IMG/VR virus record: IMGVR_UViG_3300049830_000285
Span: 113,709-177,708 of that record
Origin: a virus
Length of the DNA stretch: 64,000 bases
Direction: 5' to 3' (one strand)
The notes under the pieces were generated by a model, which saw nothing but the letters and a program-made list of their open reading frames with translations, was not told where the DNA came from and made no database searches. Numbering within the stretch: the first letter of the stretch is position 1; every line of letters begins with the position of its first letter. Of the stretch, positions 6,276 through 39,378 are shown piece by piece. The position numbers and the translations under genes were made by a program.

Positions 6276-7057
6276 TCTAAAACGACATGTGGATATTGTG
6301 CTACATCATCAAGCAAATCTTGATTGGAAAATTGTTTTCTGTTAATAGTTCTCCAACCATTGCTTGAAAGTGTTTTGTCCGAGGGACAGATGCTTCTCGT
6401 GGTTCTTCCATGCTCACCGTAATGCAAAATTTGAGCATTGTGAATTCTGTCATGTGGATTTTTCGACCTATCAAGGCGAATAAAATCATCTTCAAGAAAT
6501 CTCTCCAATCGCACTCTAAATGCCCACATTAATTCTCCATGGCAAACAATTACAACGTTTTTGTCACCAGAATATTCACGATGTAAAGTGTCTAACACTC
6601 TATCTACGCGAAGGCAAAGATTAGAAATTGATTCTCCGTTTGGCGGAGCACCATAAAATGGGTCTTCTTGCTTGAAAGAAGAAGCGCCTGTTCTTTCAAC
6701 AAAATCGCGTAATCCGACATCTCCCCAATCTCGCTCACGAAGATATGGTTCAACTTTCCATTGGGCATCTTTAAGATTTAAAGCAGCAGCGGTTTCTTTT
6801 GCGCGAACAAAATCAGATACAAAAAAACCATCGAATTTCAGCTTGATGTTATGCCTTAAATAATCGCCAGCCACTTCAGCTTGTTGGTGACCAAGTTCGG
6901 TTAATCGCCACTTCGAACCAGTTCTGCTCAATACAGATTTGTCTAATGCATCGAATTGCCTAGTTCCTTGGCGCAATTCATGCACCAATTTGTTAAATTC
7001 TGATTCACCATGTCGAACTAAGATGATATTTTTTGGTAACACATTATATGTTACCAT
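6272..7057 (-). CDS. Histidine phosphatase (phosphoglycerate mutase) family protein
   Basis: RHGES motif, SDFVRAKET, LRER, and VCHG catalytic His. Confidence 0.9.
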   Translation of the reverse strand: MVTYNVLPKNIILVRHGESEFNKLVHELRQGTRQFDALDKSVLSRTGSKWRLTELGHQQAEVAGDYLRHNIKLKFDGFFVSDFVRAKETAAALNLKDAQWKVEPYLRERDWGDVGLRDFVERTGASSFKQEDPFYGAPPNGESISNLCLRVDRVLDTLHREYSGDKNVVIVCHGELMWAFRVRLERFLEDDFIRLDRSKNPHDRIHNAQILHYGEHGRTTRSICPSDKTLSSNGWRTINRKQFSNQDLLDDVAQYPHVVLD

Positions 7058-9235: not shown

Positions 9236-9562
9236 CTATTTCCTTTTCTTTCGTTCTTTCGAATTGTTAGACGAGCCACCCTGCGGTGTGTTTTGCTCAT
9301 ATTTTCTTCCAGTGATGTGTTGCTCGCTGTCAAGCCACCCAAGCCATTGCTTAACTTGAGAATACGCCCCACTATCAAACAAATATTGAATCATCACAAC
9401 CTTTTCGTTGTATTCGGTTCGTCGCTCCTTACTCCATCGGTTGGCGTTTTCTTTTTTACTAACCGAACCAAGGGTGAAAATTTTGTTCATTTCAGCAGCG
9501 GCGAGTTTTCTATCAATTGATGCGTCGGATTGATAGTTTCCGTTTTTTGTATTTTTAGCCAT
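9236..9562 (-). CDS. Hypothetical protein
   Basis: ORF tightly packed between its neighbours. Confidence 0.55.
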   Translation of the reverse strand: MAKNTKNGNYQSDASIDRKLAAAEMNKIFTLGSVSKKENANRWSKERRTEYNEKVVMIQYLFDSGAYSQVKQWLGWLDSEQHITGRKYEQNTPQGGSSNNSKERKKRK

Positions 9563-10547
9563 AGATTAAACCGTGTAGTTGTTCTGCCTGTTCCATGATA
9601 ACATTTCCAAGCTCTAATTCTTGCAATAACAGGACTGGTAATGATTGTACACCATTTTGCGTGCCAATTAGCTGTCCTGTGATACTTCCTGTAGAATCTG
9701 AATCTCCACTGTGATTTACAGCATTAATTATCGCGTCTAAAAAGGTGTCATTTTTCAAAGCACAATAGATACTCATAGCTAGTGCTTCATCTCCAGTCCA
9801 TCCTTCTCCAATGTCGCTGAAATGCTCATGATTAAATTTGCTATCCAATGCATGTAATTCTTGAGCTAATTCCCATAATTTTATTGTTCCGCAGCTATTT
9901 TCTTCTTTCTTAATAAAATCAAAAGTGTCAGATTGTGCAATTTCAAATGTTTTATTATGATGGGTTATTAACGAAATCATTCGAGCAAGTGCCCCAGCGG
10001 GAATAAATCCATCAACATCGTGGTGGGTGACAAGAGCACACATCTTACCAGCACAATAAGCTTCATCTGGGTCATTGAGGGTTAATCCAATAGGTGCAGA
10101 ACGCATTACGCCACCACAACCTTTACTTCTATTGTTAATGGTTATTCCCGTGTCTTTTAGTTGTTTTAGCGACCCAAGGCAGGTTAGTCCCGGCGCTCTT
10201 TGTGACCAAAGTTCTTTATGTTGCATGATTTTTAAACGAGCGGCACCATCATAATCATTTTCTTGAGTTTCAAGCCAATATAAATATGCCTGTGTTAAAA
10301 TCACTTCAAATGGAATGCTTTGTCTAGATTGAAAAAATTGGCACAATGCATCAACGGTAAACATTGTCATCTGGGTGTCGTCAGTGATGGCACCTTTTCT
10401 ACCATAGGCAAAATCAAAATCTTGAATACCTTTTTCGCCATAAGCATGTTTTATGGCTCCCCATTTCATAAACTCAACCGGGGCACCCAAGGCATCTCCG
10501 ATAGCGCCGCCAGCCAAACATCCTTGAAAGCGCTCTAATGTGGTCAT
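9555..10547 (-). CDS. ADP-ribosylglycohydrolase (ARH/DraG family)
   Basis: GGAIGDALG, TDDTQM, GCGGVMRSAP, HSGDSDSTGSITG; start placed at MTTLERF. Confidence 0.92.
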   Translation of the reverse strand: MTTLERFQGCLAGGAIGDALGAPVEFMKWGAIKHAYGEKGIQDFDFAYGRKGAITDDTQMTMFTVDALCQFFQSRQSIPFEVILTQAYLYWLETQENDYDGAARLKIMQHKELWSQRAPGLTCLGSLKQLKDTGITINNRSKGCGGVMRSAPIGLTLNDPDEAYCAGKMCALVTHHDVDGFIPAGALARMISLITHHNKTFEIAQSDTFDFIKKEENSCGTIKLWELAQELHALDSKFNHEHFSDIGEGWTGDEALAMSIYCALKNDTFLDAIINAVNHSGDSDSTGSITGQLIGTQNGVQSLPVLLLQELELGNVIMEQAEQLHGLIYG

Positions 10548-10566
10548 GTGTATATTATACTCTATA

Positions 10567-11148
10567 TTAAAATCCTCTAGCTTTCCTAGCATGGTGCAGT
10601 AGACTTCTGGCTGCCTCTTCTGCTTCTTCTGGCTTTAAAGCCATCCAAGAAATGGTTTGCGAGAAATCAGTTACAACACAACCGTCTTCATGACCTATTC
10701 TCCATTTGAAATCCTGCGATGGCGCTGCTTGCTGTGTGGTTTCGGATTCATAAAATGGAACAAATTCACCGACAATAAAGGAGGATATCTTCCCGAGATT
10801 CATGTATTTTTTGTCTGCCTTCGGTAAAACAACAATAGCTAACACAGAGTCGTCTAACGGCTGAATTCTCAACGAGTGCTCTCCGCTAATGATTTCATAT
10901 TCAAAACCAGTTTCGCCAATGACTTTACTCCAATGCTGCCCGTGGCTTATGTGTAATTCACACATACCTGAAATAATTTTCACAGCAAAATTATTCATCC
11001 AATCCCATGATTGAATTTTATCAATTTTATGAAGTTCTAACACCCAATCATCAACGACGCAATGAACAGAACTCGTGCCGCATGAAATCCACTTGCCCTT
11101 TAATAGCCGTGGCATATCATTTTCCAGTTTACGCAAAGCGTTAAGCAT
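10567..11148 (-). CDS. Hypothetical protein
   Basis: Long ORF; likely start 6 nt after a TATAAT box. Confidence 0.55.
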   Translation of the reverse strand: MLNALRKLENDMPRLLKGKWISCGTSSVHCVVDDWVLELHKIDKIQSWDWMNNFAVKIISGMCELHISHGQHWSKVIGETGFEYEIISGEHSLRIQPLDDSVLAIVVLPKADKKYMNLGKISSFIVGEFVPFYESETTQQAAPSQDFKWRIGHEDGCVVTDFSQTISWMALKPEEAEEAARSLLHHARKARGF

Positions 11149-14783: not shown

Positions 14784-15376
14784 AAATTACACTCCTTAAG
14801 CGCAGGGTCGTTCGTTAAAAGCATGGCAATCACAAAAGCGTGACCCATTTTTTTCTTGGGATTATTCAACACGTCTCGCAGCGTATTCCCCAAATCGTTG
14901 TACATGTATCCGTCAAAATCTCGCAAAGCTATATCTTGACCGCCTTCATGGAGTAATTCCAGTTCTTTGTAAGCGGCAGTTTGTACGACGCGCTCAGCAT
15001 ATAAAGGCGCATAGATTTTCTTTCTTGCTTCGATGTAATCTAAGGGTTCACCGTCCCACCAAGAAAACAATGGCTTAGCGCCTCTGCCCATCGGATATCG
15101 GTCTGCCCATTTTTTACTCCAACCCGTTTTTGCCCATTCAAAATATTCGTCAGTTGGCATATTATTGTCATCAACTTGACTTGCATAAACTTTTGAATAT
15201 TGCCATGCATTTTCCATGTTGAGGCTAGCATAATCATCATACAATTTGCAAGGCCCAAGTTTAAATGGACTTAGAGCTTGAAATTGATTGGTTGAACGAC
15301 TTGTTGTATTAACCTCAAGCGCACCATTTGGCACTGTGTCATACATAGATAATACGTAAATCATGCTTGCTCCCAA
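14780..15376 (-). CDS. Conserved phage/giant-virus hypothetical protein
   Basis: LSPF..ENAWQYSKVY..DYIEARKKIY motif set. Confidence 0.6.
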   Translation of the reverse strand: MGASMIYVLSMYDTVPNGALEVNTTSRSTNQFQALSPFKLGPCKLYDDYASLNMENAWQYSKVYASQVDDNNMPTDEYFEWAKTGWSKKWADRYPMGRGAKPLFSWWDGEPLDYIEARKKIYAPLYAERVVQTAAYKELELLHEGGQDIALRDFDGYMYNDLGNTLRDVLNNPKKKMGHAFVIAMLLTNDPALKECNL

Positions 15377-16209
15377 TATGCATCTATGAGGTTGGATAGC
15401 AATGTCGCCACCGTCATTGGGCCAACTCCACCGGGAACTGGTGTGATGTAGCTCGCCTTGGGAAAAACTTCATCATATCGAATGTCACCCACGGCAACAT
15501 CATTAACTATGGCGTAACCACAATCAACGGCAACAACTCCATCCTTTAAATCAGCGCCTCGAATTAATCCCGGTACACCAGTCGCAGAAATAACAATATC
15601 TGCGTTAGCTAAAAGCTCTGGCATGTTTTTGGTGTACTTGTGAGTTATGGACACTGTTGCATCGCGCTCAATCATCATTAACGCCATTGGTCTACCTAAG
15701 ATAATGCTACAGCCCACGACAACAACATTAGCTCCTCGCAATGGAATGTTATAGTTGTCGAGTAAACGAATTATTCCAAGAGGCGTAGCGGCTCGATGAC
15801 CTTTCATTCGACTTGCAAGCAATCCCACTGAAAGCGGCGAAATACCATCCACGTCTTTTGAAACTTTAACAGTGGACAAAATTTGAGATTCATCTATAAA
15901 AGATGGCAATGGGTGCTGTACCAAAATACCATGAACGCCATGGTCTTCGTTTAAGCGATGCACTAATTCAAACAATTCAACCTGAGTTGTATTTTCGTTG
16001 ACAAAATAAGCTTCACTTTCAGCGCCAATTTGAGCCGCCCATTTGCGTTTCATTTTAACATAAGAAAGGCTCGGCGCATCTTGCCCTGCGACAATCACTG
16101 CTAATTTTGGCTTGACTGGCATTGTGTCAACTTGCAATTTAAGTTGTTCTAATGTCGATTTCGCGAGAGATTTTCCATCAAGTAAAGTGCATTCAGCCTG
16201 CGAGGTCAT
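15361..16209 (-). CDS. folD: Bifunctional methylenetetrahydrofolate dehydrogenase/cyclohydrolase
   Basis: YVKMK, GILVQHPLP, KDVDG, TPLG, TPVPGGVGPMT. Confidence 0.95.
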   Translation of the reverse strand: MTSQAECTLLDGKSLAKSTLEQLKLQVDTMPVKPKLAVIVAGQDAPSLSYVKMKRKWAAQIGAESEAYFVNENTTQVELFELVHRLNEDHGVHGILVQHPLPSFIDESQILSTVKVSKDVDGISPLSVGLLASRMKGHRAATPLGIIRLLDNYNIPLRGANVVVVGCSIILGRPMALMMIERDATVSITHKYTKNMPELLANADIVISATGVPGLIRGADLKDGVVAVDCGYAIVNDVAVGDIRYDEVFPKASYITPVPGGVGPMTVATLLSNLIDAYWEQA

Positions 16210-16397
16210 GAATCAAGTATACCACTAAGTTGCTTTTTTGAGGATTTTAGGAGCGACTTAATTGCGCAGCCACCAATCTAGGCCTTTATCCACTGTTTTT
16301 TTGCTGCTAGTCGCTCCTGGTTGGTGATATGGACTTAATGTCGAATATCATGTAATTGCAGCACAACGGACATTAATATTATACGTTATCTTAAGAA

Positions 16398-16628
16398 AAG
16401 GTGTTACAGTTGAGCTTGCCCGCCGTTCTGCTTTATGTCATCATTTGTCTATTGGCCCCTAAACCATCCCATTATAGTGTCACGCTCGCACTAGGGAAAT
16501 TCGGGTTGCATACATCCTCCGTGGTACAAGCGACGAATCTCCCACGTTACGTGAATATGCGGCGAAGTTTCTCACCATGTCTCATTAGATTGAGGTTAGT
16601 GCGATGACTTCTCTGACTGTAACATCTT
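16398..16628 (-). ncRNA. rnpB: Compact RNase P RNA (rnpB-like)
   Basis: P1 16616-16628/16398-16410; P2 GUCAUC/GAUGAC; P3 hairpin; P4 CU*UCGCCG/CGGCGGG with bulged U; GAGAAACUUC and AGACAAAUGA..GCAGAACGGCGGG conserved-region matches; TATAAT immediately upstream. Confidence 0.8.
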
Positions 16629-16693
16629 ATTATATCCATAAAAGAAAGGTAATGAGGAAAAACCATCAGAAATTGTAAAACAAAGGTATCGTC

Positions 16694-17266
16694 ATGCATA
16701 AAAAATTAGTTTTAGCAAATTTAGCGGCTGTTGCCAATAGACTAGATGAGCGCGGTATTCATGATGGTGCTGATGCTCTTACACAAGTAATGCAGCGCAT
16801 TTCTCAAAACGCATGGTGGCAAAACGATGCTGGCGAGCCAATGTATAGCCCAGAAGCCATTCGCTCCGAAGAAAGAGCTGATAGCGAACGCGAATATGAC
16901 CAAGACCCAGGGGATTATAATTCACGACATGATTTTGAAGAAGAAGAGCCAGCTTTAAAGTCACCATCTCCTCATTTACTTCAAGCAATTCAACAAATTA
17001 TGGGCACACCACCGGGCACTCCGTATGTGAAAGGCTATGTTTGGGGCCCGTTAACAGATGAGGTTGCATTTGAAAATCGCGAAGATTTAATGAAAGTTGT
17101 GGATTGGCTATATCAACATCAAGAATTCAACAACGAGTGGGACGGCTACCGAGAACAGCCACCGAAAATTACAATGCCAGAAGATACCGCCGATTCTGAG
17201 CATCAAATGCAGCCAGAAAGAGAGGATTTCGGGCATTTTGGTGATGAAAGATTAATGGGTGAATAA
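16694..17266 (+). CDS. Acidic hypothetical protein with conserved N-terminal module (paralog 1)
   Basis: N-terminus KKLVLANLAAVANRLDERG..ADALTQVMQRISQ. Confidence 0.7.
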   Translation: MHKKLVLANLAAVANRLDERGIHDGADALTQVMQRISQNAWWQNDAGEPMYSPEAIRSEERADSEREYDQDPGDYNSRHDFEEEEPALKSPSPHLLQAIQQIMGTPPGTPYVKGYVWGPLTDEVAFENREDLMKVVDWLYQHQEFNNEWDGYREQPPKITMPEDTADSEHQMQPEREDFGHFGDERLMGE

Positions 17267-19962: not shown

Positions 19963-20015
19963 TAAATTATTATACTACTTTCCTCATGATATTGTCATCC
20001 GAGTATAATACAATA

Positions 20016-27792: not shown

Positions 27793-27902
27793 TATCCTGT
27801 CTTAGATGGCTATGCCGTCTAATACACAGAATGTTTTCCAAAGTATTTCATGAGTTCATTATACTACGAAATACTCACGTTGAGGAAATTTGGTGGAGGA
27901 GG

Positions 27903-33615: not shown

Positions 33616-35469
33616 ATGAAAGTTTGCATGGCACAATTAGAGGTAAGAACAGGCGACCTCGACGGAAACACTCATCAAATCATCGAAACCCTTTTCGACA
33701 ACCAAGATAAGGCAGATGTTATTCTCTTTCCAGAATTTATGGTTTGCGGATACAACTGCGGTAGCTTGTTTGAATCAGAAGAATTCATTGACGATTGTCT
33801 GAATAAGATTGATACAATCAAGCACTTGGTTGGTGACAACCTTGTTATGGTGGGGTGTCCCACTTACGCAGAGCCGAAGTATGAGCCAAATGGTAATCTT
33901 CGACTTCACAACTCTGTGTTCGTTATGCACCAGGGCAAGATTATTCACGTTCACCACAAGAATTTGCTCGCAAATGATTTCCAACACGAAGACCGAAAGT
34001 ATTTCATTCCTGGCGAGACTGTTGAGCCATTCCAATATAGGGGCAAGTGGTATGGCGTTCTTACTTGCGAGGATTGTTGGAGAGGCGACCACACACGAGA
34101 TTTGGTGGGTGAGCTTAAGGAACAACAGCCGAGCATTGAATCCATATTCTGCTTGAACTATTCTTACTTCACTTACTCCAAGGCTGACTTCCGAGCCAAC
34201 TTGCTTTCAGGTTTGTCAAAGGAACACGAAGTTTTCATTTTCTACGTCAACGCAGTTGGTATTGGAGATATCGTAAAGAATTACATTTCTTACGACGGTC
34301 GTTCTTTGGTATATACGCCAAAGGGAGAGCTGCTTTGCGAAATGGCATCGTTTGCCAAGGATGTTCACATCGTTGATACTGATTATATGGACGGTAAGGT
34401 GATGAAGACTCAACATTCCCCAAAGAATATGATTAACTTTGCACCCTCAAGAAAGGGTAAGGGAAGTTCAAAGATTACGCCAGCGCCACTTTGTGCTGTA
34501 GAATATTCAACAAGCCTTCGCGACCATAAGTGGACTAAGTATTCTCGAATTTGGAGTTCCATGCTTTATGTTCAAAAGGAACTATTTGCGCAATGTGGAA
34601 TCAAGAAGGCTCAAGTACACGTTTCTGGTGGAGTTGATAGTGCGGTTAATGCTGTTCTTTGCGCCAAGGCGATGGGAGAAGAAAATTGTGTATTCGTCAC
34701 AAACCCAAGTCAGCACAACGGAGATTTCACAAAGAGTAACGCGCAGTCTATTTGTGATAAGTTGGGTGTACCGCTTTATTGGGTGCCAATCCAGACAATC
34801 GTTGATGCATCACTTGAGGCTTGCGATAAGGGTATTGGTCAAAAGCTTTCCGCCGTTCCATTTGTTGTTGGTACATCCGAAGCCACTGTGAGAAGCACCG
34901 TAGGCTTGACAATGGCAAACTTCTTCAATAGTGGTATCGTTTCTACTGGAAATCACACAGAAAACGTACTTGGTTGGTTTTCGTTCCACGACGTTGGCAG
35001 CATTGGCGTCTATCAGCCAATCGGTGACTTAACTAAGCTTGAACTCTTTGACCTCTGTGGATTCGTTAACAATCTTTACGGCGAGGAGCTTATCCCGAGA
35101 GAGCTATGGGACGAAGAAGTGCGAACACAACCTGCCGCAGAACTTGCTGACTCCACCGACGACCCATTCGATTATCAAATCTATTCTGGAATCTGCGCTG
35201 AAATGATTCGAGCGAGAAAGCTTCCAAGAGACTTGATTCGAGACTTTGACATGAGAAATCTGAATGAAGACGCTTTTCCTCCAACGAAGCACTATGATTA
35301 CTACGCCGACAGAGAGAAGTTCGAGAATGCTGTAAACGACGCTTACAAGCGAAGCAAGAGAAGTGTTTATAAGTGTGCTCAATCTGCGCCAGTGCTAATC
35401 ATGTCGCCACGGTCAAGAGGATTCAGTTCGCGAGAAACGATTCTTAACTTCTACGACGCGACTGTTTAG
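33616..35469 (+). CDS. nadE: Glutamine-dependent NAD+ synthetase (nitrilase + synthetase domains)
   Basis: LFPE, K..L, TCED nitrilase triad; VSGGVDSAV, TGNHTE, PIGDLTK, PAAEL. Confidence 0.92.
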   Translation: MKVCMAQLEVRTGDLDGNTHQIIETLFDNQDKADVILFPEFMVCGYNCGSLFESEEFIDDCLNKIDTIKHLVGDNLVMVGCPTYAEPKYEPNGNLRLHNSVFVMHQGKIIHVHHKNLLANDFQHEDRKYFIPGETVEPFQYRGKWYGVLTCEDCWRGDHTRDLVGELKEQQPSIESIFCLNYSYFTYSKADFRANLLSGLSKEHEVFIFYVNAVGIGDIVKNYISYDGRSLVYTPKGELLCEMASFAKDVHIVDTDYMDGKVMKTQHSPKNMINFAPSRKGKGSSKITPAPLCAVEYSTSLRDHKWTKYSRIWSSMLYVQKELFAQCGIKKAQVHVSGGVDSAVNAVLCAKAMGEENCVFVTNPSQHNGDFTKSNAQSICDKLGVPLYWVPIQTIVDASLEACDKGIGQKLSAVPFVVGTSEATVRSTVGLTMANFFNSGIVSTGNHTENVLGWFSFHDVGSIGVYQPIGDLTKLELFDLCGFVNNLYGEELIPRELWDEEVRTQPAAELADSTDDPFDYQIYSGICAEMIRARKLPRDLIRDFDMRNLNEDAFPPTKHYDYYADREKFENAVNDAYKRSKRSVYKCAQSAPVLIMSPRSRGFSSRETILNFYDATV

Positions 35470-37339: not shown

Positions 37340-38710
37340 TTATTCTTGCACTGGCTTTACATAGGGGAACCAGCTCACCTGTCGAATGTGACTTGCGTCA
37401 GAGAGTGCCATAGCTAATCGGTCAATGCCAATGCCGACGCCAAAAGCTGGCGGCATTCCACAAGCTAAGGCGTATACAAAGTCGTGGTCGATTTGATTAC
37501 CAAGAGCATCAAATTGTGATTGAAATGCCGCGAGTTGAACTTGCGGGTCGTTTTGCTCACAGAATCCATTTGCAATTTCCATACCACTGATATATGCTTC
37601 AAATCTCTCTGCATACTTTCCATCTTGACTTCTAGCTAATGGCGAAATACAAGATGGGTGATGTGTGATAATTGTCGGAGACAAAAGCTTGGGCTCAACA
37701 AAAGACTTCATGCATTCTTCTAGCATTTCTAATGTTTCTGGCTTCGAGAAATCCCACTCATCAATATCATGACCAGCGTGTTCATAGATGGCTTCACGCA
37801 TTGTCATTGTTGTCCAATCGCTTTCATTAATCTTAACTTCAAAATGTTGTGAGGCCGCTTGTACGATTACCTTGAATCGCTCAATTCCTTGTGTGAAGTT
37901 ATCATACGCAGTGTAATACTCCAGAAGAGTAAACTCTGGATTGTGATGTGCGCTGATACCTTCGTTTCGGTATACAGTGCCAATTTCATACACGCGCTCA
38001 AAACCGCCACATAAAAGCTTCTTAAGCTGAATTTCCAATGAAATGCGCAGCTTTACGTCCGCTTCATATGCGTTGTAATGTGTATCGAATGTCTTTGCCT
38101 CTGCTCCGCCCGGAATTTGAAGTAACGTTGGAGTTTGAACTTCGATGAACGATGCAGTGTTGAGAGTTTCGCGAATATTTGTAATCATTCGCGAGCGTTC
38201 AACAAGTCGTTGTCGCAAATCATCATCAATGAGCATCGCCAAGTGTCTATGACGCATTAGAATTTCTGCATCACGCACTTGATTGAATGCTTCACCATCC
38301 TTTTCTTGACCATAAGGAACTGTCACCAGAGCCTTGCTCAAAATATGGAAATTCGATACAAAGATTGACTTTTCTCCAGCAACCGTTGCCTTGTAAACAC
38401 CCTCGAAGTGAACTAAGTCACCTGAGTGAATGTGCTTAACAATCTGCTTCCAGCCCTCGGCGGTAAAGCCTTGTTGAAAAACAACCTGGATGCGTGATAG
38501 CTGTGTTGCATTTGGAGTTTCTGAATACAAAATTGTGGCAAATGTCATACTCCCCATACGTCGAATAGTTAAAATTCGGCCGACGAGTGAAACACTAGTT
38601 CCCTCTTGATAACCACCACGTGGTATCCAGATGTATGGAGTATCCTGTAAATATGGGCGCTGTCCTAACTGGCGCAATTGTTCTAAACTGTCTATTCTAT
38701 CTGTTTGCAT
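37340..38710 (-). CDS. lysS: Lysyl-tRNA synthetase, class II
   Basis: OB-fold GRILTIRRMG, FIEVQTP, YEIGTVYRNEGISAHHNPEFT, ERFE..EIANG, GIGIDRL. Confidence 0.92.
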   Translation of the reverse strand: MQTDRIDSLEQLRQLGQRPYLQDTPYIWIPRGGYQEGTSVSLVGRILTIRRMGSMTFATILYSETPNATQLSRIQVVFQQGFTAEGWKQIVKHIHSGDLVHFEGVYKATVAGEKSIFVSNFHILSKALVTVPYGQEKDGEAFNQVRDAEILMRHRHLAMLIDDDLRQRLVERSRMITNIRETLNTASFIEVQTPTLLQIPGGAEAKTFDTHYNAYEADVKLRISLEIQLKKLLCGGFERVYEIGTVYRNEGISAHHNPEFTLLEYYTAYDNFTQGIERFKVIVQAASQHFEVKINESDWTTMTMREAIYEHAGHDIDEWDFSKPETLEMLEECMKSFVEPKLLSPTIITHHPSCISPLARSQDGKYAERFEAYISGMEIANGFCEQNDPQVQLAAFQSQFDALGNQIDHDFVYALACGMPPAFGVGIGIDRLAMALSDASHIRQVSWFPYVKPVQE

Positions 38711-39034: not shown

Positions 39035-39054
39035 TGCTCAATTATAGCAGATTG

Positions 39055-39378
39055 TTACCCTTTTGAGGAAAAAGATTCATGTAATGAGCCGCCAATATCA
39101 CAATATTCAGAAGCATCGAATGGTCGGTGCCAATTTTCGCCTTGACTTTGATTGTATTCCATATCTTCTGGATGCGGATATGGAATGAGTGCAATTCTGG
39201 GAATATCTATGCATCCACCGTCTAGCGACACAAGAATCGAAAAAGCTAAACCATCCAGAGCTTCTTCTTTACTATCTGTTTCAACTCTAGCCCAATATTT
39301 AACCAAGTGCTTGATGTGATTAAGAAAAATTTCTCTTGTTTCTTCTGCTGTTTGTTCTCTAGGCTCTGACATTTTCAA
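39055..39378 (-). CDS. Conserved phage hypothetical protein
   Basis: LDGLAFSILVSLDG..GSLHE motif. Confidence 0.55.
   Translation of the reverse strand: MKMSEPREQTAEETREIFLNHIKHLVKYWARVETDSKEEALDGLAFSILVSLDGGCIDIPRIALIPYPHPEDMEYNQSQGENWHRPFDASEYCDIGGSLHESFSSKG

Follow-up and report, generated by a model that had tools for sequence, protein, structure and literature searches.

The terminal 64 kb of a 177.7-kb IMG/VR viral contig (record IMGVR_UViG_3300049830_000285, positions 113,709 to 177,708), referred to here as the window, probably carries on its minus strand a gene, transcribed on its own, whose product is a miniature RNase P RNA of bacterial type-A descent. The gene lies at window positions 16403-16623, a length of 221 nt from the 5′ end of helix P1 to its 3′ end, and this reading is given a probability of roughly 0.78. 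Few ribozymes are universal; RNase P RNA, which trims newly made tRNAs, is among them. A first-pass annotation of the same DNA had placed a phage-encoded RNase P RNA of ~230 nt on this strand at this position. Strand and position are borne out, and the identity is supported by an element-by-element match to the type-A catalytic domain and by Rfam matches in relatives; the length has to be shortened. The contig has a CheckV completeness of 47%, which at its present size puts the phage in the jumbo range.

Fold and covariation of the RNA

The case for the RNA is comparative and not thermodynamic, as the folding energy of the single sequence is unremarkable (z = -0.76), although its minimum free energy fold does close P1 and P2. 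Taken by itself, the window sequence would not have supported the first-pass reading. Twenty-one short members of the family were aligned with plain MAFFT, the alignment not being fitted to a structure, and P4 and P6 were included in the pair count as pseudoknots. Standard pairs occupy 93.8% of the pair cells, against 62.5% in shuffled alignments (0/500 reach the observed value) and 33-42% with slid partners; the slid-partner control accounts for phylogeny, whereas the shuffle control does not. Compensatory changes are present in 45 of the 48 pairs, with a covariation score of 0.80 versus 0.21, and all 10 helices, the pseudoknots P4 and P6 among them, are 88-98% paired. RNAalifold recovered P1, P2, P5, the internal hairpin, P15, P16 and P17 from the MAFFT alignment unaided. 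Three sequences of the window group already display compensatory changes in P1, P2 and P4, and for P1 and P2 such changes exist even between the window and a relative that is 91% identical. On this comparative evidence, window 16403-16623 (minus strand) is predicted to be a discrete, conserved and structured RNA gene, made up of the following elements (P, helix; L, loop; J, joining region; CR, conserved region; related loci bear numbers with the prefix L).

16611-16623, minus strand: 5′ strand of P1, GUUACAGU-CA-GAG, pairing with 16403-16414 (8/8 pairs compensatory, 93.9% of cells paired)
16403-16414, minus strand: 3′ strand of P1, CUC-A-ACUGUAAC, followed by ACCUUUUCUU, pairing with 16611-16623
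16603-16608, minus strand: 5′ strand of P2, GUCAUC (6/6 pairs compensatory, 98.4% of cells paired)
16437-16442, minus strand: 3′ strand of P2, GAUGAC, pairing with 16603-16608
16581-16594, minus strand: P3 hairpin CUCA-AUCUAA-UGAG, with other sequences in L012, L010, L180, L107 and others
16568-16576, minus strand: J3/4 with the CR-I block GGUGAGAAA, in which GAG[G/A]AA is invariant
16560-16568, minus strand: 5′ strand of P4, A-CU[U]CGCCG, U16565 being bulged, a pseudoknot crossing P2 and pairing with 16418-16425
16418-16425, minus strand: 3′ strand of P4, CGGCGGG(C) (7/8 P4 pairs compensatory, 92.7% of cells paired)
16556-16559, minus strand: 5′ strand of P5, CAUA, pairing with UAUG at 16509-16512 (4/4 pairs compensatory, 97.6% of cells paired)
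16550-16554, minus strand: 5′ strand of the P6 pseudoknot, UCACG, pairing with CGUGA at 16480-16484 in the P17 loop
16520-16546, minus strand: remnant hairpin of the specificity domain (S-domain), CGUGG-GA-[GAUUCGUC]-GCUUGUA-CCACG, 27 nt
16506-16512, minus strand: 3′ strand of P5, UAUG, and J5/15, CAA, both A's invariant in the alignment and matched by the covariance model to GCAA of RF00010
16457-16505, minus strand: P15-L15-P16-P17 arm of three 3-bp helices, P15 CCC/GGG, P16 CCC/GGG and P17 GUG/CAC
16443-16456, minus strand: J15/2 with CR-IV GCCAAUAGACAAAU, with no P18 between P15 and the junction
16426-16436, minus strand: J2/4 with CR-V AUAAAGCAGAA, aligned to ACAGAA of the Rfam models

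These elements are predicted to form a complete type-A catalytic-domain fold from which P18 has gone and in which the S-domain is represented by a 27-nt hairpin. Much of this had been drawn correctly in the first-pass annotation. P1 (GUUACAGU..GAG/CUC..ACUGUAAC), P2 (at exactly 16603-08/16437-42) and P4 (CU[U]CGCCG/CGGCGGG, 16560-67/16419-25, with its bulged U) all covary strongly, overwhelmingly so among homologs in the case of P2 and P4, and the P3 hairpin CUCA/UGAG, the conserved stretch AGACAAAUGA...GCAGAAC and the absence of P18 are likewise as it described. Two of its helices have to be replaced. For its P5-like CGCA/UGCG, covariation favours CAUA/UAUG, and the 10-bp helix GGGAGAUUCG/CGAAUUUCCC that it took for a reduced S-domain is lost even in L010, which is 70% identical; the reduction of the S-domain is real, with the 27-nt hairpin at 16520-46 as the actual remnant.

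The outer helix of P1 differs wholly in sequence from member to member, and P2 occurs in ~20 different sequences with 6/6 pairs formed in nearly all (by automatic tabulation). P3 is missing in L021, L022, L162, L307 and L278. P4 is 7/7 paired, and its bulged U, followed by a C, is found in nearly all members at a fixed distance 3′ of GAG[G/A]AA; the CR-I block of relatives is aligned by the covariance model to GAGGAAAGUCC of RF00010/RF00011. The J5/15 adenosines presumably correspond to the A248 region of the E. coli RNA. P6 (5/5 pairs compensatory, 91.4% of cells paired) is a covarying helix that links the strand just 3′ of P5 to the loop of the P17-like stem, which is the P6 topology of type-A RNAs. 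The remnant hairpin consists of a 5-bp stem (93% paired), a 3-bp stem (97%) and a conserved internal loop.

In the P15-P17 arm every pair is compensatory, with 88-94% of cells paired. The 3′ side of L15, AUGGUUUA, has a conserved GGU at 16463-16465, whose GG is invariant and whose U is present in at least 90% of members (L178 and L206 deviate); by analogy, this GGU would bind the 3′-CCA of a tRNA. The 3′ strand of P15 then passes directly into CR-IV. There, UAGACAAAU is invariant and is aligned by the covariance models to CuAGAugAAUG (RF00010) and uAGAuAgAUg (RF00011), although the invariance of UAGACAAAU and of AUAAA is partly by construction, as most members were recovered with scan patterns in which these letters were fixed. 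AUAAA[A/G]CAGAA is conserved in the family, the window having GCAGAA and most members an A in place of that G. The fourth base of CR-I (window 16570) and the base before CAGAA (16431) vary together, being G..A in 28 cases, A..G in 11 and mixed in none, with an apparent independent switch at these positions in L221. This covariation suggests a tertiary G.A/A.G contact in the catalytic core.

Family members and matches to RNase P models

The phage family to which the RNA belongs is widespread. Scans of viral, metagenome and genome collections with the pattern GGCCAATAGACAAAT and then with TAGACAAAT-N6-ATAAARCNRAA left 46 distinct family cores after filtering with an nhmmer profile. Syntenic contigs were reached through homologs of the 190-aa protein encoded next to the RNA. 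A block matching window 16407-16637 is 91% identical in L012, L013 and L015, a block at ~16402-16643 is 70% identical in L010, and in these syntenic relatives similarity ends at the proposed edges of the RNA. On a 1.36-Mb contig of an Armatimonadota metagenome-assembled genome, a member was found among five tRNA genes (L307:3478-3687, plus strand); elsewhere, on a different contig, the assembly carries a normal type-A rnpB (246.5 bits), and the region with the mini-RNA is likely a prophage or island. Another member lies unannotated in the published 595-kb genome of an uncultured phage (LR756511.1; L355:2880-3111, at ~224.2 kb), with no tRNA gene within 3 kb. A blastn search of deposited phages with the L217 RNA gave no match.

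Members range in size from 198 to ~362 nt, with L187:432-793, L263:222-539, L279:5198-5504, L225, L250 and L258 carrying inserts. The inserts grow progressively at the S-domain position and before CR-IV, in a manner resembling a reduction series.

The 198-nt RNA of L021 is matched over its full span by RF00010 with 57.1 bits (E = 6.6e-15; a smaller search gave 1.1e-15). With the Rfam RNase P models, full-span matches were also found in other members: E-values of 1.4e-13 and 1.9e-11 were obtained for L215 and L206, values of 1e-8 to 1e-10 for L174, L250, L199, L182 and L187, and values between 1e-7 and 7e-4 for L178, L268, L217, L226, L236, L162, L258 and L225. Helix for helix, the alignment of L021 to RF00010 agrees with the covariation fold. 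P1 and P2 are retained, P3 is almost deleted, and GAGGAAGGUC is set on GAGGAAAGUC, followed by P5; 140 S-domain positions stand against 38 nt and 23 P18 positions against 1 nt. GCAA is placed at J5/15, P15/L15/P16/P17 come next with UGGUA on CGGGUa, and the alignment continues with AUAGACAAAUG on CuAGAugAAUG and ACUGAA...CUAC on ACAGAA...UUAc (consensus strings of the CRs were taken from the consensus lines of the Rfam models).

A model built solely from the 21 short members, R1, gives scores of 62-185 bits to larger relatives (240-362 nt) and finds the member in LR756511.1 with 133 bits (E = 4e-33). Run on the whole contig, it gives the window RNA 182.7 bits, as the sole copy in 178 kb. It also reaches two type-B RNAs at 24 bits (E = 6e-5). 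These two, L229 and L233, are bona fide type-B RNase P RNAs by RF00011 (246.9 and 233.1 bits) and contain the anchor motif of the family, the covariance model placing UAGACAAAUGAUGAA...AACAGAACAUGGCUUAC at J18/2, the 3′ strand of P2 and CR-V. At the sequence level, the link of the family to RNase P is thus supported, and with it the earlier interpretation.

The type-B RNAs themselves (L229:4294-4626, plus strand; L233:278-608, minus strand) are full-size and lack P19, with a GC content of 0.30, and are found on small metagenome contigs inside tRNA gene arrays with 9-23 genes.

Putative promoters, neighbouring genes and tRNA linkage

Loci of the family have 7.8 tRNA genes per 10 kb, compared with 0.51 in 252 non-family loci found with the same patterns, a 15-fold enrichment. 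In all 29 tRNA-bearing family loci the nearest tRNA gene is on the strand of the RNA, often <150 nt away. The window has 20 tRNA genes according to ARAGORN and 19 according to Rfam, every one on the minus strand, in place of the ~25 counted in the first-pass annotation. A 3′-CCA is encoded by 17 of the 19 at the strict offset, and apparently also by the remaining two, shifted by one base, which fits the retention of the GGU in L15. From the tRNA linkage, the CCA-encoding tRNAs and the GGU loop, it is plausible that the RNA matures phage tRNAs.

A phage protein partner appears to exist in one relative. The 508-kb IMG/VR record G006 (~97% complete, labelled provirus) has a mini-RNA of 153 bits (L354, G006:C1:385490-385698), no canonical rnpB and, 220 kb from the mini-RNA, an open reading frame (ORF) of the RnpA family (146 aa, 50 bits; L353:1378-1818, plus strand). 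This ORF is surrounded by ORFans and a PHROG protein, a phage-like setting, and not by the rpmH-rnpA-yidD-yidC operon. The pair may constitute a complete phage-encoded holoenzyme.

In the mechanism proposed for the window RNA, transcription would start at a promoter of its own and the RNA would bind an RnpA-type protein, either that of the host or one encoded by the phage as in the 508-kb relative. The ribozyme would then cleave the 5′ leaders off the CCA-encoding pre-tRNAs of the phage. Its hold on the substrate would be on the acceptor stem, the 3′-RCCA and the leader through the catalytic domain, not on the T-loop/D-loop elbow, and a large set of phage tRNAs could be matured independently of the amount or fate of the host RNase P RNA.

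In L021, a viral contig of 36.7 kb, a gene for the bacterial small signal recognition particle (SRP, 4.5S) RNA (L021:5828-5917, minus strand; 49.9 bits, gathering 40) is situated ~460 nt downstream of the 198-nt mini-RNA. The 4.5S RNA is itself an RNase P substrate.

Around the RNA gene of the window the following features were identified.

16629-16659, minus strand: promoter-type motif TTCCTCA-N18-TATAAT, with TATAAT at 16629-16634, ~6 nt upstream of the first P1 base
16378-16407, minus strand: second promoter-like site GTAACA-N18-TATAAT, a 10/12 consensus match by pattern only, overlapping the 3′ end of the RNA
15361-16209, minus strand: folD (methylene-tetrahydrofolate dehydrogenase/cyclohydrolase; Pfam PF02882 and PF00763, phrog_7320), the downstream neighbour, outside the RNA

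The motif that the first-pass annotation took for a promoter, TTCCTCA-18-TATAAT, is indeed present. With a spacer of 17 or 18 nt the motif occurs four times in the window (16629-16659, minus; 19980-20009, plus; 27858-27887, minus; 39041-39070, minus) against 0.02 occurrences expected, and TTTCCTCA and TATAAT are kept in L012 and L010, the spacer between them having diverged. The motif probably represents a class of promoter specific to the phage, in which the -35-region element is unusual. A generic sigma-70 scan did not call the site of the RNA gene because its -35 element is atypical. The second site is a possible folD promoter. After P1 a U-rich tract is found in many members; the P1 3′ strand of the window runs into ACCUUUUCUU, and no canonical terminator was called downstream of the window RNA.

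The RNA is contained in a 484-nt gap between folD and a divergent ORF of 190 aa (16694-17266, plus strand). It lies 190 nt from folD on the same strand, an order that is kept in L010 and L012. An ORF for a LAGLIDADG_2 homing endonuclease stands between the RNA gene and folD in L012 (1034-1756, minus strand) and also in L013. Searches of deposited phages with the gap and with 10 kb (blastn and megablast), and of viral contigs with peptide patterns from both flanking proteins, returned no match. The exact 17-mer GCAGAACGGCGGGCAAG was also tried on viral contigs and rejected: all eight matches were due to chance, as the similarity did not extend further and none belonged to an Rfam family.

Genes related to translation and nucleotide metabolism in the window include, besides folD, an AlaRS-like N-terminal fragment (PF01411; 18229-19059, minus strand), a class II aminoacyl-tRNA synthetase of the Asp/Lys/Asn type (37340-38710, minus strand) and a glutamine-dependent NAD synthase (33616-35469, plus strand). 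An ADP-ribosylglycohydrolase (9555-10592, minus strand) is a further enzyme encoded by the phage.

Alternative readings and known RNase P RNAs

A number of observations weigh against the assignment to RNase P. No RNase P match was found for the window copy with Rfam, either over the whole window at the gathering threshold or over the local 800 nt at E<=10, and RF00010 gave no match to the whole contig, its control genomes being positive. Five other loci of the window subgroup (L010, L015, L180, L307 and L278) also lack an Rfam RNase P match. As its own match is lacking, the membership of the window copy rests on alignment to members that do match Rfam, and these matches, at 27-57 bits, are all below Rfam gathering (84-100; RF00010 100). 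Even L021, when scanned over a 351-nt range (6300-6650), gave only RF00011 at 16.3 bits, its match to RF00010 being obtained in whole-locus scans; short-range cmscan can therefore miss such RNAs. R1 did not match the canonical type-A rnpB of the Armatimonadota locus with default filters. With filters off, its best match in that locus is rnpB, collinear and with the 132-nt S-domain opposite the mini-RNA hairpin (22 model positions), at a score that is not significant (5.6 bits, E = 0.15). The window subgroup has GAGAAA and GCAGAA, not GAGGAA and ACAGAA, and the outermost pair of P4 is A.C in the window and A-U in 20 of 21 members. In the syntenic L011 both flanking genes are kept with 89 nt between them and the RNA is absent at that position, so that it may be dispensable. 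The nearest tRNA gene is 8 kb from the window RNA, which lies upstream of folD and outside any tRNA array. Finally, neither the PF00825 model nor the RnpA of G006 detected an RnpA on the window contig, a negative that carries no information, as only about half of the genome is present (47% complete).

The covariance-model search proposed in the first-pass annotation has thus a divided outcome, with nothing for the window copy and E-values of 1e-4 to 1e-15 for relatives. The missing match is considered to be outweighed, because an nhmmer profile made from three window-group sequences recovers L021 (E = 1.8e-20) and L021 in turn is matched by RF00010 at E ~1e-15. The window subgroup as a whole is tied to the remaining family by the nhmmer profile, the common alignment and the model.

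An RNase P-type ribozyme acting mainly on substrates other than tRNAs, such as polycistronic mRNAs, tRNA-like elements or small RNAs like that of SRP, is an unlikely alternative explanation. Being without a T-loop-reading domain, such an enzyme would favour hairpin-type substrates. Pre-4.5S RNA is processed by E. coli RNase P without an intact S-domain being required (PMC11143913), an SRP RNA gene is only ~460 nt away in L021, and the window gene adjoins folD and not tRNAs. Nevertheless, the surroundings of members show a 15-fold enrichment in tRNA genes, which share the strand of the RNA and are often no more than 150 nt away, the putatively CCA-binding GGU is kept where 17 of 19 tRNA genes, and apparently the other two, encode CCA, and bacterial catalytic domains (C-domains) freed of the S-domain do cleave pre-tRNA, with or without protein (PMC5839562, PMC11143913). 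Ranked below this is a decoy derived from RNase P, a non-cleaving RNA that would bind host RnpA or pre-tRNAs and so modulate or shut down host tRNA maturation. Such a role would be compatible with the loss of the S-domain and P18 and with a window subgroup that no RNase P model recognises and that has changed at two positions of the core, and it has a precedent in the RNase P-like RNA of camelpox virus, reported to be without detectable processing activity in vitro (PMC3001073). A decoy would need a protein-binding surface alone, yet the bulged U, CR-I, CR-IV, CR-V, the J5/15 adenosines, the GGU and P6 are under purifying selection over deep divergence, and the two core changes covary in 39 of 39 cases, which speaks for a contact being maintained and not for decay. 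Moreover, the genes share strand and operon with the tRNA genes of the phages themselves, and an RnpA encoded by one of these phages makes little sense for a sponge.

That the RNA is a cis-acting 5′ leader exerting riboswitch-like control over folD is very improbable. Its position 190 nt upstream on the same strand, conserved in L010 and L012, would suit such a leader, but most members are far from folD and in tRNA arrays, the LAGLIDADG ORF intervenes in L012, L011 has folD without the RNA, and a second promoter-like site occurs between RNA and folD. The idea was rejected, as the two are separable in relatives and no tetrahydrofolate, ZTP or other riboswitch model matched the local 800 nt at E<=10. 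Least credible of all, and refuted at the level of the family, is a chance resemblance or a decaying pseudogene without function. The folding z-score of -0.76 and the lack of an Rfam match for the window copy might point that way, against which stand 45 of 48 pairs covarying across the family, changes that are compensatory even relative to a 91%-identical sequence, and more than 40 distinct members spread over metagenomes, viral contigs and a phage genome of 595 kb that is already published. None of these rivals accounts at once for the location in tRNA arrays and for the selective keeping of all the catalytic and CCA-binding features.

The reading as a miniature RNase P RNA that serves tRNA maturation would add tRNA 5′ maturation to the translation steps taken over by large phages, of which tRNAs, aminoacyl-tRNA synthetases, CCA-adding enzymes and tmRNA are already known. 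A broader proposition is held more tentatively, at somewhat worse than even odds: that large phages have evolved their own catalytic-domain-only RNase P, in some cases with a phage RnpA, which does not read the tRNA elbow and matures CCA-encoding, possibly atypical, tRNAs. If true, phage tRNA maturation would be independent of the host enzyme or preferred over it, and this could matter after shut-off of host transcription or under tRNA-targeting defences that force a mass resupply of tRNAs. No publication on a phage-encoded RNase P RNA was found; neither the huge-phage paper of 2020 nor a review of jumbo phages from 2026 nor one of RNase P from 2024 mentions such an RNA. Current covariance models miss the class, and published huge-phage genomes such as LR756511.1 hold unannotated copies.

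The only viral precedent found in the literature is the RNase P-like RNA of camelpox virus, likewise a virus-encoded RNA that resembles RNase P RNA (PMC3001073). It differs in belonging to a eukaryotic virus, in resembling nuclear H1 RNA and in having no tRNA-array context. The type-B RNAs of L229 and L233 (RF00011) share with the phage RNA an identical J18/2-P2-J2/4 motif, UAGACAAAUGAUGAAAUAAAACAGAA, and a dense tRNA array, but are ~330 nt long, retain the whole S-domain and follow the type-B plan, from which P19 alone is missing.

The first-pass annotation had compared the RNA to the archaeal type-T form (Pyrobaculum and other Thermoproteaceae; RF02357), which is its nearest analogue in nature. 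Both are natural RNAs of ~200 nt in which the catalytic domain survives, with the universal positions of P4, J2/4 and J15/2, and most of the specificity domain is lost, and type-T RNAs too were missed by the covariance models existing at the time (PMC3579882). Type T, however, arose from archaeal type A and has a P2 of 3 bp, a shortened P15, a P5/P15 linker of 2 nt and archaeal protein partners (PMC3579882), whereas the phage RNA has a P2 of 6 bp, a 3-nt CAA linker and the bacterial P6 and P15-P17. RF02357 had no match in any cmscan. The comparison is apt for the kind of reduction, which is convergent in the two RNAs and not due to shared ancestry.

Engineered bacterial C-domain ribozymes (E. 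coli 'CP RPR' and comparable constructs) are similar in consisting of a type-A catalytic domain without the S-domain, the phage RNA keeping P6 and having no P18. They are laboratory truncations of reduced efficiency, while the phage RNA is natural and maintained, with a conserved hairpin replacing the S-domain. Efficient cleavage by the E. coli C-domain needs a P6-type interaction, and P18, which docks on P8 of the S-domain, makes no contribution once that domain is removed (PMC5839562). The keeping of P6 along with the loss of P18 and P8 is the pattern expected of a working enzyme without an S-domain, and retention and loss in the phage RNA agree with the truncation experiments. A natural bacterial-type RNase P free of both S-domain and P18 would bear directly on what the minimal functional bacterial RNase P is, and the family offers small, diverse ribozyme scaffolds for structural and engineering work.

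With type-A RNase P RNAs (RF00010; E. coli M1/rnpB), the phage RNA has in common P1-P5, a P6 formed with the P17 loop and the P15-L15-P16-P17 arm, in the same order and topology, as well as the bulged U of P4, the J5/15 adenosines, the GGU of L15 and CR-I, CR-IV and CR-V, and RF00010 aligns relatives end to end. It is 221 nt long compared with roughly 350-400 nt, and has a 27-nt hairpin where type-A RNAs have an S-domain with P7-P14 and the T-loop-binding CR-II/CR-III. P18 is lost, P15, P16 and P17 are only 3 bp each, and some members have no P3. The phage RNAs also differ in scoring below Rfam gathering, in being phage-encoded and in often lying within tRNA arrays. Because of the S-domain, P18 and the score, the RNA is not filed as a regular member of RF00010. 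Judged by sequence and predicted fold, its closest relatives by descent are nonetheless the bacterial type-A RNAs, of which it appears to be a reduced derivative.

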